In this document: piece by piece, positions 9,001 through 15,000 of the stretch
Numbering within the stretch: the stretch's first letter is position 1
Layout of the letters: each line of letters opens with the position of its first letter
NCBI GenBank assembly: GCA_964630685.1
Contig: CAZVVW010000009.1
Coordinates: 1 to 39,677 of the forward strand
DNA from: an uncultured Methanosarcinales archaeon
GTDB taxonomy: Archaea; Nanobdellota; Nanobdellia; Woesearchaeales; BS150m-G63
Length of the DNA stretch: 39,677 bases
Direction of reading: 5' to 3'
Program-made: the position numbers

Positions 9001-12000
9001 GATTTTGAAGAAGAGTTGCCTGGAAGTTTAGTGGCAGAAGAAAAACCAAGATTAATACCCAGAACTCCACAACCAAGAAAACGAAAAGTGTCTATTTATG
9101 ATCTTGTAGATGCTTTAGAAAAAGCATTAGAAGTAAGAAAAAGAAGAGTTACAAGGAGCATCCCTCCACAAAACATAATATTACCAGAAAAAACAGTAGA
9201 TATTGGATTTGTGATGAATAGTTTACTTAAAAAAATCAAAGATTTTTTTTCGATTGGTAATAAAAGATTAACATTTAAACAATTAATCCCTTCAGAATCA
9301 AAGGAAGATAAAGTATCAATTTTTGTTCCTTTACTTCATTTAACAAATCAAAGAAAAGTTGATGTCCACCAACAACAACATTTTGGAGAAATAGAGGTTG
9401 AATTATTAAGAAAACAAGCTAAAGCAAAATAAATGCAAAATGGAAAAAGAACAACAAAACCAAAATCAAATGCAACTTCAAATGATTGCTCAACAAATAG
9501 GTCAGATGCAAAACCAGTTAAAAATGGTCGAAGAACAATTAAATGAGTTAATAATAATCAAACAAGGATTAAATGATTTAGAAAAATTAAAAAAAGGAGA
9601 TGAAATTCTTACTCCGTTAAGTAATGGAATATTTATAAAATCAAAATTAGAAGACAACAAAAATTTAATAGTTAATGTGGGTGGAAATACCACAGCAAAA
9701 AAAACAATACCTGAAGTAAGAAAAATGTCAGATAAACAAATGGACGAATTAAAAAAAGTGCAGACAAATTTATTGACAGAGCTCCAAGGATTAAATTTAC
9801 AAGCAAATTATTTTGAAAAAAAATTAAAGGGTTAGGTGTTTTATGTTTAAATTTTTAAAAGAAAAATTAAGTAAAGCGGTTTCTGTATTTTCTAAAGGCG
9901 TAGAAGAATCTTCAGAGGAAGAAGTAGTAGAAGAAACACCCAAAGAAGAGCAAACTCTTCACAAAAAAAAAGAAACCAAGAAAAAAGAAGATAAAAAATC
10001 AGTTGAAAAGAAAAAAGAAAAAGAAATCAAAGAGAAAAAAACCAAAAAAAAAGAGGAAAAATCTAAAGAAGAACATAAAGAACCAGAACTTAAAGGAGAA
10101 CCAGAAAGTCAAACAAAAGAACCAGAAGAAAAACCTAAAGAAGAAAAACAAAGTTTTTTCAAAAAAATATTCAAGAAAAAAGAACAAGAAGAAGAAACCA
10201 AACCAAAAGAACAAGAAGAAGAATCGGAAAAACAAGAACAACAACCAGAACTTAAAGAAGAATCTAAAGAAGAATCTAAAGAAGAATCTAAAGGAGAATC
10301 TAAAGAAGAAAAACAAGGATTCTTCAAAAAGATACTCAAGATTTCTATTTCAGATGACAAATTTAATGAATTATTCTGGGAAATTGAATTAGCACTTTTA
10401 GAAAATAATGTGGCAGTTGAAGTTATTGAAAAATTCAAGCAAGATTTAAAAGGAGAATTGTTAAACAAGAAACTAAGCCCATTCAAATTATCACAAATAA
10501 TCAAAAAGAGCTTTGGGAATACCTTAGATGAATTATTTGATTTAGAAAAAATAGATCTAATCTCCAACATAAAAAAACAAAAACCATACACTATTCTTTT
10601 TGTTGGTGTAAATGGTAGTGGAAAAACAACTAATTTAGCAAAAGTCGCATATTTACTTAAAAATAAAGGGTTAAAATCAGTAATCGCAGCATGTGATACT
10701 TTTAGGGCAGCAGCACTACACCAATTAGAAGAACACTGCAATAATCTAGATATAAAATTAATTAAACATGATTATGGCTCAGATGCAGCAGCAGTTGCTT
10801 TTGACGCAATAAAACACGCAGAATCAAAAGGATTGGATGTCGTGCTTATTGATACTGCTGGACGTTCACACTCAAATGTAAATCTTATGGATGAGCTGAA
10901 AAAAGTAGAAAGGGTGTCAAAACCACACTTGACTGTTTTTGTTGGAGATTCTTTAACTGGAAATGATGTTGTTGAACAAGCAAGAGCATTCAACGAAGCA
11001 GTAGGAATAGACGCAATTATATTATCAAAAGTAGATGTAGATGAAAAGGGAGGTGCTGCAATTTCTGTAAGTCACATAACTGGAAAGCCCATCATTTATA
11101 TTGGCTCTGGCCAAGAATATAAAGACTTAAAAGAGTTTGATAAAGAATTAGTTATAAATTCCCTTGATCTCGATTAAATTATTGGAGGTATCAACATGTT
11201 TGGATTTGGAAAACCTTGGTTAAAAAGAAAGTTTAAGGACAATACTGTTTTTGAAATGAAAATAGATTACATAATAAAACATCTTGACAAACCAGATAAA
11301 AAGAAAGTAGAAGGAAAAGTTTCTTTTTTTCACCAAGAAGATTGGCAAAACAAAAAAGAGCAAAAAATCCATAAAGCATTAGATTCTGGAAAAAAACACT
11401 CAAAGTTTGACCCGATTAGATTAGCACTTCACACAAAAAAAGAACAATTTAGAGTGGGTGATGGAATCTCAAGATTAAGAGCATTCAAAAAAAAAGAGAT
11501 AGAGAAAATAAAAGTAGAACTATGTATAGGTGAATGGTGATATTGTTATTGCCCACCATCTTCAGAGTAACTAATTTTTTGGTTGTAATAAATCCCTTTT
11601 CTTAATTTAACAGGTCTCCAATTATCAATCACTAATTCAGCATCCATCCAATCAGCCAGCTCTTGGGGGTTTCCTATTGTAGCACTTAATCCAATAAACT
11701 GTGCATCCAACATCTGTTTAAGTATTGTAAGCAGAATCTCTAAAGTTGGACCTCTGCCAGGATCGTTAAGTAAGTGAATCTCATCAATTACCACAACGTT
11801 TATATCTTCTATCCAGTTAGATTTATGCCTTATCAAAGAGTCTAGTTTCTCAGAAGTTGTTATAATCAAATTATGTTTATATAACCCCTTATCTGAAGAA
11901 TCTAAATCCCCAATAGACAGTGCAACTTTAATTAGTCCATCATATTTTTTCTTAAAATCTTTATATTTTTCAGATGCAAGTGCTTTTAATGGAACAATAT

Positions 12001-15000
12001 AAACAGCTTTCCCTCCTTTCTCCATCAATTGTTTTAACATAGCCATTTCAGCAATAAGTGTTTTTCCAGAAGCAGTTGGAGTGCACACAAGCAGGTTTTC
12101 CCCTTTAAATAAACTTTTCTTAATCGCTTTTTCTTGAGAAGGACGCAATTTACCTATATCTTTACTCAAGATTTCATAAACTTCTTTAGGTAACTCTTTT
12201 TTTATGTCTTTTAGATTCATAAACTCCTAATAATTTCAAAACTTTAAAATCTTTCCTAAAAATTTATATATCTAAAAGATAATCAAACAACCATGGCAAA
12301 AAAAGAGGTTTATCACATCTATCTATTTAGGCATGGCCAAACTTATTATAACAGAAACCATTATTTTACAGGTTGGAAGGATTCTAAAATAACATCTCAA
12401 GGAATTAAAGATGCTAAAAAAGTCGCCAAAAAATTAAAAAACAAAAAAATAGATATTGCGTATCATTCACATCTTTCTCGTTCAAAAGACACACTCAAAC
12501 AAGTTTTAAAATTTCATCCAGAATGTAAAAAGAAGATTTGTGATGACAGAATCATTGAGAGGTGTTATGGAAAATTGCAAGGATTTGGTCATAGTTCAAT
12601 AATAAAAAAATATGGCCAAAAACAATTTGATATCTGGCATCGTTCTTATGATATTTCTCCACCTAAGGGAGAGAGTGTTAAGATGGTTGAAAAAAGAGTT
12701 AACGCGTTCATAAAAGAACTGATAAAAAAAATAAAAAAAGAAAAAATAAATGTAGCTATTTCTGCACATGGAAATTCTATGCGCCCTTTTAGAAAATATT
12801 TTGAAAAACTCAACATTAAACAAATGATGAAATTAGAAAATCCCTGGGACGATTACTTTGAGTATAAGATAAAAATTTAATCATCAAATTGAGCTCTACT
12901 TAAATAAGCTTTTGACAGATATTCTTCTTTTTTTACAGGCTTGCCATAACTAGAATCATAAATTAATCCTTCATTTTCAACCACAAAATGATGACTCCAA
13001 CTATGGACATCAACTTTTGTTGGTAGCAACATTCCACCTTCAACAGGAATCACTTTTCTTAATTTTGCTTCAAGGCCCTCATCTTTCATAACCACAAAAA
13101 GAGAATTAGCCCGAGTATAACATCCATGACTATTATGAACTTCTGTATCATATTTTTTTGCTTCTTTAACCATTAGTTCAAAATAATTTTCAAATCCCAT
13201 AAGAACCACTTTTTACTAGCAATATAAAAAAGTTTCTATAAAAAAATAGAAAAAGAAGGAGAACGAATCCCCTTAATTTTTCAAAAAAAAACAAAAAATG
13301 ACTTAAGCTTTTGCTAAGTCATATACATCTTTAAGAGCTACTACCACAACAGCAGGAATAACAAATACCATTACAGCATCGAAAATTCCTCCTAAATATG
13401 GACCAATAAATGCAACACTTGTTAAGGTTGATGATGCTCCTCCCATGTAACTTGCAATAACCAATACGATTGCCGCAAATATAAACTTCTCAGCTTGCTT
13501 TCCTGCAATATTCAAGAATCCTACAATTAATCCAAATAAGATTAAAAGAGAAACAAGCCAAGCTTGGAGGCCACCTAATGATGCGCCTATAAGTCCTAAA
13601 ATTACTGCTAGTATTACTCCCAAAATGAATGCCCACTTTCCTAATATGTCTTTCATCTTGTGTAATCACCTCTCACTATTATGTAAGACTTAAATTTTAT
13701 TAATGAGTGAATTCTATATAAAGGTTTCTAAAATTTATAATAATCTAAAAGTAGTAAAAACAATAAAGAAATAAAAAATAATTTTAAATATTTAATGTAG
13801 AACCATTGGAATGTGAAATAATTATTTTTCCTTTAGAACTCTTAAATTTAATCACAGCAGGACTTAATTTCAATGACCCCAAAATACTCAATTTAGATTT
13901 GATTTTGTAGGTTATCATCCTTTCTTCAAACCCTTCAAGGATATCAATATTCCATTTTAATAAAGTTCCTTTAATATCATGAGTCATTACTTTAGTAGGT
14001 TTTAAAGTTCCTAAATAATCTTCTTTAACTAAATTAGCAATATTAGGTATTTTTTCTATAACCCTTATATTTTCATTTTTGCTTTTGGTTCTGTTTTTGA
14101 TATTGAGGGTTACTTTGATTTTTGAAATTCCCCCTTCTTCAATTTCTAACACTTCAGCTTTTTTCTTTATAATCACAGGGCTTCTTGTCAAGAAATATAA
14201 AATCACAACAATAATCAAAATTATACTTAATGCAAATAGAGATCTAAAATTTTCAGTGTAATTAATTTCTATTTTTTGAGATGGCTCAAGTACTAATTCC
14301 CACACAAGATATTTTTTTCCATCTTCTGTAAGTAGTTTAGTTTTAGGTTCTGTACTGGTAAATAAACTCTTAAACCAGTCAGTAGGTATTTTGTATAATT
14401 TAGAACCTTGAGTATTTCCATCATTTAAGATAACAACTTTTGTTTTTGTTTTCAAAAACTCTTTTTGAGTTATTATAGTACTAACAAAAGCAGAATAACC
14501 AATAATTTCAATATTCTCCCTATCAGGTGTAAAAATAGTATCACCTGTTGAAACAGTTGCAATTAACACATCTTCCATGGGATCTGTTACAGGACTCAAA
14601 GTTATAACAAAAGTTTCAGTTCTTTCTTCCAAAGGACTTAAAGAAACTATTCTTTTTTTGTGAATTAATCCACTATTAGTAGTTAGGTCGATCGTAACTT
14701 CCTCTAAATCTAAAATATTAACATTTTTTAAATTTACTTTTACAGTAAATTTACCTCTAGGATCTATTTTGATTGGATCAACAAGCATAGTTGTAATTAC
14801 AAAAGGTAAATAATCCTGCATTTCTAGTCCAGTAGATCCGATATAAACAGTAACATCTTCACTATCTATATCACCAGTTGATTGTATAGTTGCAATCACA
14901 GGCAATTTTTTTGGACCTGCAGAAATTCGATTTGGTGGTGTAAGATAAAGTATAGTTGAATCAGAAGATTGAGCTGGAACCATCATTCCACTAAAATAAT

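Follow-up and report, generated by a model that had tools for sequence, protein, structure and literature searches.

A probable two-chain Hel308 DNA helicase encoded by two unlinked genes in an archaeal order labelled Woesearchaeota

Analysis of a 39,677-base stretch of archaeal DNA (contig C9; hereafter the window) showed a gene that is very probably the N-subunit of a two-chain Hel308 DNA helicase, derived from one ancient fission in the ancestor of the order labelled Woesearchaeota. Sequence comparison directly showed the gene structure and a colinear, complementary second gene; both are conserved throughout the order under purifying selection, keep their motifs intact and have separate promoters. 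Physical assembly of the two chains is most likely, as judged from a complex model, and the assembled helicase would be expected to be active. The features are listed in Table 1.

Table 1. Features of the two Hel308 genes and their surroundings (positions in the window unless contig C5 is named)
Feature	Position	Strand	Description
N-half gene of split Hel308	11546..12220	-	ATG-to-TAA ORF, 224 aa; TAA stop 11546-11548
N-half C-terminal tail	11549..11620	-	residues 201-224, beginning WRPVKLRKGIYY; start of RecA2 in single-chain Hel308
Motif I / Walker A, TPTASGKT	12059..12082	-	residues 47-54; T47, P48, T49, S51, G52, K53, T54 invariant 20/20
Motif II, DEIH	11774..11785	-	residues 146-149; D146, E147, H149 invariant 20/20
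N-half promoter and ribosome-site region	12221..12270	-	TATA-like boxes at -50 and -29, GGAG at -8/-7
FtsY (SRP receptor) gene	9843..11177	+	SRP54 and SRP54_N domains; convergent with N-half
114-aa ORF	11196..11540	+	between FtsY and N-half stop; no known family
C-half gene of split Hel308	C5:31829-33388 (= L001 1459-3018)	-	519-aa ORF

RecA1, with motifs Q, I, Ia, Ib, II and III, lies on the N-half, which then runs 24 residues into RecA2. The N-half matched DEAD in Pfam (1.8e-33), positions 1-219 of the 739-position NCBIfam Hel308 equivalog NF002654 (E 3.1e-85) and residues 19-218 of Pyrococcus furiosus Hjm (2zj2; 3.8e-65). Exactly one other Hel308 match was found in its own genome (G000), at C5:31871-33373 on the minus strand (NF002654 positions 226-714, E 1.2e-132). 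This C-half supplied the remainder of RecA2, where motifs IV, IVa, V and VI lie, and continued through the winged helix and ratchet domain 4 to a helix-hairpin-helix (HhH) tail. Pfam detected HTH_61 at residues 165-258 and Helicase_dom4_arc at 311-438; the HhH, detected by Pfam in relatives L056 and L065, was below threshold in the 519-aa C-half, and the profile match extended to position 714 of 739. In the search of the whole genome, the two halves covered NF002654 colinearly (1-221 and 226-714) from contigs C9 and C5, without overlap or loss. Their lengths summed to 743 aa (224 + 519); the sums were 709-751 aa in 20 split pairs versus 698-745 aa in 12 fused relatives. The genome had exactly one orphan RecA1 and exactly one orphan RecA2, and its three other DEAD matches with a Helicase_C partner were single frames of 415, 749 and 794 aa. 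The genome-wide survey's note had described two unlinked Hel308 genes with no intein or frameshift between them, and both points were confirmed. The residue numbers given there for HELS_METVS were compared through the corresponding profile and PDB positions.

The curated NF002654 cut-off of 887 bits was reached neither by the N-half (285.8 bits) nor by the C-half (441 bits). Fused genes of the sister orders scored at most 790.7 bits, with 0 of 121 genomes above the cut-off; because these also fell short, the low scores reflect class-wide divergence as well as the split. A full-length Ski2-like protein of about 640 aa, recorded earlier as a paralogue in some relatives, was considered as a Hel308 back-up and rejected: it carries a DSHCT domain and is a helicase of the Mtr4/Ski2 type, not a Hel308.

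As the survey's note had stated, neither half lies at a contig end: C9 and C5 (71,795 bases) both extend past the genes, and N letters occur in the window solely as one run, at 1636-1735. Contigs of four public runs (X3, 11000-12004; X5, 11000-11707; X4, 11464-12152; X1, 11000-12152) bridged the stop codon at 11546-11548 with zero differing letters; of these runs, X4 belongs to a second study and X1 may be the source sample. It is extremely unlikely that the short gene is a product of misassembly or a fragment of a decaying pseudogene. The genome is indeed a metagenome-derived assembly of 35 contigs, and several apparent splits in other orders were located at contig ends (G047, G067, G079, G141); however, the identical cut was present in five one-contig genomes (G019, G027, G184, G193, G239), and the closed chromosome CP010425 (GW2011_AR15) has it too, with halves at 904,778 and 761,226. 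Comparison with the same-genus genome G001 gave dN/dS of 0.064 for the N-half, with dS of 1.45 near saturation, and 0.083 for the C-half, which points to purifying selection maintaining both halves.

At 34 of 100 N-half loci FtsY followed the N-half tail-to-tail, an arrangement absent from all 26 fused or outgroup loci; as a conserved neighbour it marks the breakpoint on the 3' side. The 114-aa ORF had no match in Pfam, recurred among the 100 loci solely in the same-genus locus L015, and lies outside the helicase.

The earlier placement of the split between the two RecA domains did not hold. In the comparison with 2zj2, N-half W201 aligned with Hjm W198, where Hjm domain 2 (residues 198-399) begins according to one section of PMC2636818 ('Overview of the structure'). 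The cut therefore leaves 24 residues of RecA2 on the N-half and misses the RecA1/RecA2 border by that distance. Alignment of 20 N-halves showed that the tail residues W201, R202, P203, V204 and L206 were invariant. The N-half ended 0-12 variable residues past a conserved GKIEF-type end, and the C-half began with Met and about 10 variable residues.

The alignments and gene boundaries also bear on whether the halves are joined into one chain by mRNA trans-splicing or a split intein. The related Nanoarchaeum equitans unites tRNA halves by trans-splicing, as a passage of PMC3491384 states. Inteins occur in this gene (Intein_splicing and LAGLIDADG in G080), and C-half frames of about 1030 aa were found in G178, G191, G172 and G218; but the inteins observed were at profile position 340, away from the cut. 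In the aligned N-half and C-half ends, no Cys, Ser or Thr was conserved at the junction. Because the summed lengths match those of the fused genes, with zero surplus for intein halves, there is no space for an intein. Start codon, stop codon and TATA box are, moreover, present separately for either gene. Joining of the chains was thus considered highly improbable.

Upstream of the start codons, TATA-like boxes were found in 10 of 20 N-half genes (-28 to -30) and in 16 of 20 C-half genes (-27 to -32). Both half-genes have a TATA box of their own, spaced as for leaderless transcripts. No upstream motif common to both genes was found. A conserved box, CACTGGACAT, was located at -51 to -54 of C-half genes, immediately upstream of BRE/TATA. 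Of 20 C-half genes 8 carried it, whereas it was absent from all 92 N-half upstream regions and all 14 fused relatives examined. The same box preceded the repair genes NreA, Cas4/Dna2-like nuclease and endonuclease IV (G000, G001, G008). The split might be a control point, at which damage-induced supply of the C-subunit to a constitutively made ATPase subunit would switch the helicase on; we regard this as unlikely, and if true it would represent regulation of an SF2 motor by assembly.

Besides motifs I and II, the key residues of the other N-half motifs (Q29, PLKALA 77-82, TSEK 122-125 and SAT 179-181) were invariant in 20 of 20 sequences. The same was true of the C-half RecA2 motifs (F29; F86, H87, H88, G90, L91; T114, L117, A118, G120; Q151, G154, R155, G157, R158), with motif IVa following the pattern FHH.GL and motif VI the pattern Q..GR.GR; the Hel308 motif IVa is given as F/YHHAGL in a passage of PMC10484726.

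The survey's count among 41 relatives was reproduced: 38 had an N-half-type match, in frames of 197-281 aa (unpublished G002 counted), and a C-half-type match was complete in 35, with fragments in 3 more. A larger sample of the order comprised 151 genomes at least 90% complete. No frame spanning the cut was found in any of the 151, and the best match anywhere in the sample was a C-half (2.3e-146). At E <= 1e-65, both halves were present in 132 genomes, neither in 2 and one half alone in 17. Recheck of 10 of these 17 with half-specific profiles still did not find the missing half at E <= 1e-5 in 6 genomes, namely G148 (100% complete), G013 (97%) and G228 (96%) with the N-half alone, and G111 (100%), G021 (96%) and G161 (98%) with the C-half alone. 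Since a same-genus or same-family relative carried both halves for 5 of the 6, assembly gaps are likely; some one-half genomes may have lost the other half.

These six genomes, 96-100% complete by marker genes and three per half, would suit a reading in which the halves no longer cooperate and have separate roles, the N-half for example as a stand-alone ATPase or another protein's partner and the C-half as a DNA-binding factor. The differing upstream sequences, with the box confined to C-half genes, would fit as well. Such a divorce is nevertheless improbable: the one-half genomes are scattered tips whose relatives carry both halves, and the order keeps the pair in 132 of 151 genomes. The catalytic motifs of both halves are all invariant, including the arginine-finger motif VI of the C-half, which would be useless without a P-loop partner, and the invariant residues of the N-half tail are meaningful only as part of RecA2. 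The single orphan RecA1 and single orphan RecA2 in the genome also argue against separate roles.

Among further public loci, the stop was 0-66 codons past the match in 76 of 80, and within 12 codons in 74 of those 76; CP010425 is one of these loci. Where both halves were on one contig (10 genomes), 10 to 424 kb separated them. In other orders of the class, a single frame spanned profile positions from 22 or lower to 699 or higher in 47 genomes. In trees built by a quick method, a branch with SH-aLRT of 97 and 99 separated the 20 split rows from the remainder, and the split forms, as a single group, apparently share one origin. The order with the shared cut spans more than 100 family codes. The survey's description of an old gene fission conserved across the order was thus upheld, with intact genes retained in the sister orders.

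The modelled complex of the N-half and C-half gave an ipSAE of 0.81, against 0.00 for the best of 3 controls, and so passed a mark that 116 of 157 solved complexes had attained, as had 2 of 215 mismatched pairs; these counts are rough here, where own alignments were used. The pass may reflect mere likeness and not binding, because single-chain Hel308 structures have been solved (2zj2, 2p6r, 2va8, 9b15). The runs agreed in at least 94% of contacts, and partner pLDDT was at least 85. The pairing modelled at the lowest expected error was that of N-half tail residues 203-219 with C-half residues 162-177. The modelled interface also included the N-half P-loop (48-50), N-half residues 147, 149 and 151-155, and C-half motif VI (150-159). 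The suggestion that the ATPase site is assembled from two polypeptides is therefore supported at the level of motifs and model, with invariant motifs on both chains and the P-loop and motif VI at the modelled interface.

In the two-chain helicase proposed here, the two genes would be transcribed separately from their own promoters and translated separately, and the chains would join post-translationally. The N-chain tail (WRPVxLxxGxY) would act as a tether strand, slotting in next to the strand of RecA2 that comes after motif VI, and RecA1 would pack on the winged helix and ratchet domains, closing the usual Hel308 ring. The composite ATP site would take its P-loop and DEIH from the N-chain and its arginine-finger motif VI from the C-chain. 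The assembled protein would be the usual 3'-to-5' repair and fork-restart helicase.

Such an enzyme would be an SF2 motor, tested by nature over a long time, with its ATP site across two chains, and the model suggests that the motor is held together by a donated beta-strand and the Hel308 ring. The arrangement could guide split-helicase engineering and lets the importance of the covalent RecA1-RecA2 link be tested. No report of the Hel308 split of this order was found in the searched literature. A 2024 Ski2 survey demanded 60% coverage and discarded 'partial' sequences, as a passage of PMC10946056 states; because such surveys filter by coverage or partial status, the order would be scored as lacking Hel308, a helicase that it keeps in two pieces.

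Compared with single-chain Hel308/Hjm (P. furiosus 2zj2, Sulfolobus solfataricus 2va8, Archaeoglobus fulgidus 2p6r, and 9b15), the pair has the same order of RecA1, RecA2, winged helix, ratchet domain 4 and HhH and the same motifs, including IVa F/YHHAGL, and both halves have their best matches in PDB and NCBIfam within this family. It differs in being made as two chains by unlinked genes, with the cut 24 residues into RecA2, whereas the sister orders keep a single gene. In G136, from another order of the same class, Hel308 is likewise encoded by two genes, about 25 kb apart on one contig. The cut there falls after RecA2, at profile position ~385, giving a first gene with DEAD and Helicase_C (378 aa) and a second with winged helix, domain 4 and HhH (354 aa); this split, seen in one genome, is an independent event.

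The reverse gyrase of N. equitans is naturally split (NEQ434/NEQ318), as listed in Table 1 of PMC3655853. Like the two-chain Hel308, it is a split enzyme containing a helicase-like module. Its cut sets the helicase-like module apart from the topoisomerase module, whereas the Hel308 cut runs through the ATPase motor. Capp and co-workers reportedly studied the separate and combined activities of the reverse gyrase subunits in 2010.

Passages of PMC3655853 state that Lhr ('large helicase-related protein') is split in N. equitans (NEQ003/NEQ409) and Nst1 (Nst172/Nst239), and that the split Lhr is taken to require post-translational assembly. Because the cut sites are there given as differing between the two, the nanoarchaeal Lhr splits appear to be younger and lineage-specific. 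Both Lhr and the two-chain Hel308 are SF2 repair helicases encoded by two separate genes in genome-reduced archaea of the same phylum; they differ in helicase family and in that one Hel308 cut is common to a whole order. DPANN gene fission thus extends beyond the most reduced hyperthermophilic nanoarchaea and can be ancient and stable, here across more than 100 family-level lineages, and the two-gene Hel308 is a further case of the gene splitting known from Nanoarchaeota.

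The genome carrying the window (G000; 936,502 bases, 35 contigs, 96.6% complete) was searched with NF002654, the NCBIfam Hel308 equivalog profile of 739 positions. Exactly two places were matched: the N-half gene in the window (profile positions 1-221) and a region of contig C5 within a 519-aa ORF, the C-half. This division agreed with the genome-wide survey's note, which had described Hel308 as two unlinked genes. Aligned with the profile on its own, the N-half covered positions 1-219 (3.1e-85). It covered Pfam DEAD over the full domain length (1.8e-33) and matched the solved Hel308/Hjm structures 2zj2 (residues 19-218, 3.8e-65), 2va8, 9b15 and 2p6r (the last three at 1e-54 to 1e-56). 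The C-half contained Helicase_C, the winged-helix domain HTH_61 and the archaeal helicase domain 4. In PF00270 and PF00271 scans of G000, the N-half was the sole orphan RecA1 and the C-half the sole orphan RecA2; the remaining three helicases had both domains within a single frame. The coordinates of all features are listed in the table.

Coordinates of the Hel308 genes and of other features (G, genomes compared; L, fetched loci)
Feature	Location	Strand	Remarks
Hel308 N-half ORF	window 11546-12220	-	ATG to TAA, uninterrupted, 224 aa
Hel308 C-half match	G000:C5:31871-33373	-	NF002654 positions 226-714, E 1.2e-132
FtsY	window 9843-11177	+	
Weak DEAD-domain match	G000:C8 ~28,085-28,195		in 5,479-aa open frame
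Box before G000 C-half	L001 3062-3070, G000:C5 near 33,440	-	
Further box loci	L149, L153, L148, L150, L147 (G000); L154, L163, L168 (G001); L156, L165, L170, L176 (G008)		
Short N-side ORF of G141	L061 705-1485, G141:C17		
Second Hel308 fission, G136	G136:C4 ~31 kb and ~57 kb (L055:804-1940; L056:796-1857)	-; +	gene 1, RecA1 and RecA2, 378 aa; gene 2, winged helix, domain 4 and HhH, 354 aa
Extended C-half of G162	L180 1090-3099		
Fused gene with RecA2 intein, G080	L065:774-4439		
Arch-less Mtr4/Ski2-type helicase with DSHCT	L177:601-2493 (G030); L178:418-2337 (G018)		631-640 aa

Past the N-half stop there was a 114-aa ORF on the opposite strand, followed by FtsY, and no continuation of the helicase was found downstream of the stop. 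The N-terminal ~150 aa of this FtsY were extremely rich in Lys and Glu and preceded the SRP54_N and GTPase domains. Elsewhere in G000, a weak DEAD-domain match lay in an open frame so long that the genome must contain a giant gene.

Both Hel308 genes lay far inside their contigs, as had been stated, and the sole N run of the window was at 1636-1735. Contigs of four public runs (one from a second study; one may be the source sample) spanned the N-half stop codon and its flanks with zero differing letters. The same two-gene arrangement was found in five one-contig genomes (G019, G027, G184, G193 and G239) and in a public closed chromosome, that of Archaeon GW2011_AR15 (CP010425; N-half at position 904,778, C-half at 761,226).

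Alignment placed W201 of the N-half on W198 of Hjm. In the domain description by Oyama et al. (PMC2636818), Hjm domain 1 comprises residues 1-197 and domain 2 residues 198-399; W201 therefore corresponds to the first domain-2 residue, and the N-chain consists of RecA1 and the first 24 residues of RecA2. The survey's note had put the cut between the RecA domains; the two-gene split held, but the cut lies 24 residues inside RecA2 and not at the domain border. In this tail, W201, R202, P203, V204 and L206 were invariant. The N-half ended 0-12 variable residues past a conserved end of the type G-x-Y-L-D-G-K-I-E-F, and the C-half started with Met and ~10 variable residues, followed by the conserved (I/L)ALDTI..KQALVF. 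The summed lengths of both halves were 709-751 aa, versus 698-745 aa for fused genes. Since nothing was lost or added in length, no space is left for the halves of a split intein, and the earlier claim that no intein joins the halves was upheld.

In the nearest-relative set (G000 and 40 relatives with 38 family codes, all of one order, the unpublished G002 included), 38 of the 41 genomes had an N-half-type match, in frames of 197-281 aa; the C-half-type match was complete in 35, and 3 more were fragments at contig ends. The order sample comprised 151 genomes at least 90% complete, with more than 100 family codes, including the unpublished G219 and G204. At 1e-65, 149 of them had a match and 132 had two, while both halves were absent in G009 and G252. 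The top match of the whole sample was a C-half (2.3e-146), and for all C-halves listed, the match started at profile position 179-234 or beyond. Because a fused gene would score higher than either half, no fused Hel308 is present among the 151 genomes, and the conservation of the split across the order, proposed from fewer genomes, was confirmed. Two long frames at C-halves were rejected as fused genes: a 746-aa frame in G154 was a mere stop-free stretch upstream of the gene, and a 769-aa frame in G162 had a C-terminal extension, both without RecA1. The G162 C-half continued ~150 residues beyond the usual end, running off the fetched stretch.

A further 80 public loci were examined, most of them with Candidatus Woesearchaeota in the title; the stop lay 0-66 codons past the match in 76 (at most 12 codons in 74 of these). 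Two ran off the contig, and two (L115 and L131) were full-length fused genes; these were labelled Woesearchaeota/Nanoarchaeota without a GTDB order, and the tree placed both outside the split group.

In other orders of the class, a single frame spanning profile positions from 22 or lower to at least 699 was present in 47 genomes. Candidate splits at the same site in G047, G067 and G079 were assembly breaks, cut at contig ends. In G141, of another order, an N-side ORF ended at a true stop codon, ~25 codons beyond the Woesearchaeales cut site and 160 nt short of the contig end; Hel308 was fused in its close relatives G147 and G051, and the short ORF may reflect either a recent break or an error of assembly. 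A second Hel308 fission, at another site, was observed in G136, of another order of the class. It is independent of the Woesearchaeales split and was seen in one genome only. RecA2 was interrupted at profile position 340 by an intein of ~500 aa (Intein_splicing and LAGLIDADG) in fused genes of other orders (G080 and G128) as well as in C-halves of the split order (G178, G191, G172, G218 and G185).

Trees were built from the concatenated halves of 20 split genomes with 12 fused genes, and again with 14. The split rows formed one side of a branch with SH-aLRT values of 97 and 99 in these quick, midpoint-rooted trees, in which the program raised a flag for one long row, G057. This grouping suggests that the split arose in one event, in line with the old fission that had been proposed. 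FtsY immediately followed the N-half stop, in tail-to-tail orientation, in 34 of 100 N-half loci, versus 0 of 26 fused or outgroup loci, and this adjacency is a surviving footprint of the rearrangement. An origin by inversion was considered when the halves had opposite strands in each of the first six same-contig pairs; with five more genomes, the count was 7 opposite and 3 same, so there is no strand rule and the idea was dropped. For N. equitans, RNA genes (C/D-box or other) are proposed as break mediators in PMC3491384. Near the N-half, no Rfam match and no tRNA were found in the window; two tRNAs were located upstream of the C-half.

Only one half was detected at 1e-65 in 17 genomes, 10 of which were searched again with half-specific profiles. 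The missing half was recovered in four (one with an intein, one a fragment, two just below the threshold), and the other half was not found at 1e-5 in six: G148, G013 and G228 had only the N-half, and G111, G021 and G161 only the C-half. A proportion of ~10% one-half genomes is expected from ~95% completeness. Some genomes may instead have truly lost one half; the six were 96-100% complete by marker genes, and a same-genus or same-family relative with both halves exists for five of them.

Compared with the same-genus genome G001, the N-half had a dN/dS of 0.064, with dS close to saturation at 1.45, and the C-half a dN/dS of 0.083. The residues of motifs Q, I, Ia, Ib, II and III in the N-half, and of motifs IV, IVa (FHH.GL), V and VI (Q..GR.GR) in the C-half, were invariant in 20 of 20 sequences; the observations extend from gene structure to intact motifs. 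Each gene started with an ATG of its own, preceded by a TATA-like box at the distance expected for leaderless archaeal mRNAs (-27 to -32 in 16/20 C-half genes; -28 to -30 in 10/20 N-half genes). Judged from the sequences, both halves are maintained.

A conserved box, CACTGGACAT (relaxed CA[CG][TCA]GG[AT]CA), was found at -51 to -54 relative to the C-half ATG, directly upstream of BRE/TATA. It was present in 8/20 C-half genes, 0/92 N-half upstream regions and 0/14 fused genes. The 9-mer occurred 10 times in G000, versus an average of 2.4 and at most 8 in 100 shuffles; 10-mer counts were 6, 4 and 13 in G001, G010 and G008, versus 0, 1 and 0 for reversed-pattern controls. Sites of box plus TATA preceded NreA, a PD-(D/E)XK nuclease of Cas4/Dna2-like type, endonuclease IV and Sua5 in G000; the box lay ahead of NreA, endonuclease IV and Sua5 in G001, and of a Cas4-like nuclease, a Bro-N protein, a radical-SAM protein and others in G008. 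The box may be the operator of a Woesearchaeales DNA-repair regulon, and its distribution suggests, as a lead, that the regulon includes only the C-subunit of Hel308.

For complex prediction, the alignments of the two halves were given as two chains, with three controls. The ipSAE was 0.81, versus 0.00 for the best control; of 157 solved complexes, 116 reach the mark applied, as do 2 of 215 mismatched pairs, figures that are rough here because the alignments supplied were custom-made. Three model runs agreed in at least 94% of contacts, with partner pLDDT of at least 85. In the model, the lowest-error contacts joined N 207-211 with C 166-171, the strand after motif VI, and N 161-170 and 188-191 contacted C 224-233. 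The modelled interface also included C motif VI (150-159), the N P-loop (48-50), the N DEIH region (147-155) and the ratchet segment C 407-414. As single-chain Hel308 structures are solved, this pass indicates that the known fold can be adopted rather than that the chains bind. In such a two-subunit Hel308, the covalent RecA1-RecA2 link would be replaced by the donated strand, with ring contacts of RecA1 to the winged helix and ratchet domains also standing in for it. The ATP site would form in trans, and the predicted enzyme would function as Hel308.

The survey's note had also pointed to a full-length Ski2-like paralogue. Ski2-like genes of 630-690 aa did occur in 18 of the 41 nearest-relative genomes and were absent from G000 in that comparison. 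Their domains were DEAD, Helicase_C and DSHCT. One product aligned end to end with an arch-less MTR4 construct and matched yeast Ski2 (5.6e-113) and Mtr4 (7e-109); its matches to Hel308 structures reached only 1e-32 to 1e-49. The genes belong to another, Mtr4/Ski2-type subfamily and do not replace Hel308. The 2024 archaeal Ski2-like survey (PMC10946056) retrieved no COG4581-type members from 294 archaeal genomes.

That survey set a minimum COG coverage of 60% and discarded 53 partial sequences, and would therefore have missed the Hel308 split. As noted earlier, no mention of the split was found in passages of it or of the fusion/fission survey PMC11237513. In the former's supplement, Woesearchae, Nanoarchae, DPANN and 'partial' each occurred 0 times; in the latter, 'helicase' was absent from the main text, and Hel308, COG1204 and Ski2 from seven supplement files. 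No paper naming both Hel308 and Woesearchaeota was found in the collection of papers that was searched, nor any report of a Hel308 split in DPANN or of an archaeal helicase split between RecA1 and RecA2. Papers found with the order names left Hel308 unmentioned.

The two-gene Hel308 is real, order-wide and anciently fixed, with a well-defined cut inside RecA2 and a testable model of its assembly. Nanoarchaeum equitans and Nst1 are textbook cases of archaea with split protein genes (PMC3655853, PMC6349945). There, the helicase Lhr is split at different cut sites (NEQ003/409 and Nst172/239; PMC3655853), and reverse gyrase is likewise split in the nanoarchaeal set (PMC3655853, PMC6349945). The two-gene Hel308 joins these DPANN split genes, an already known kind.
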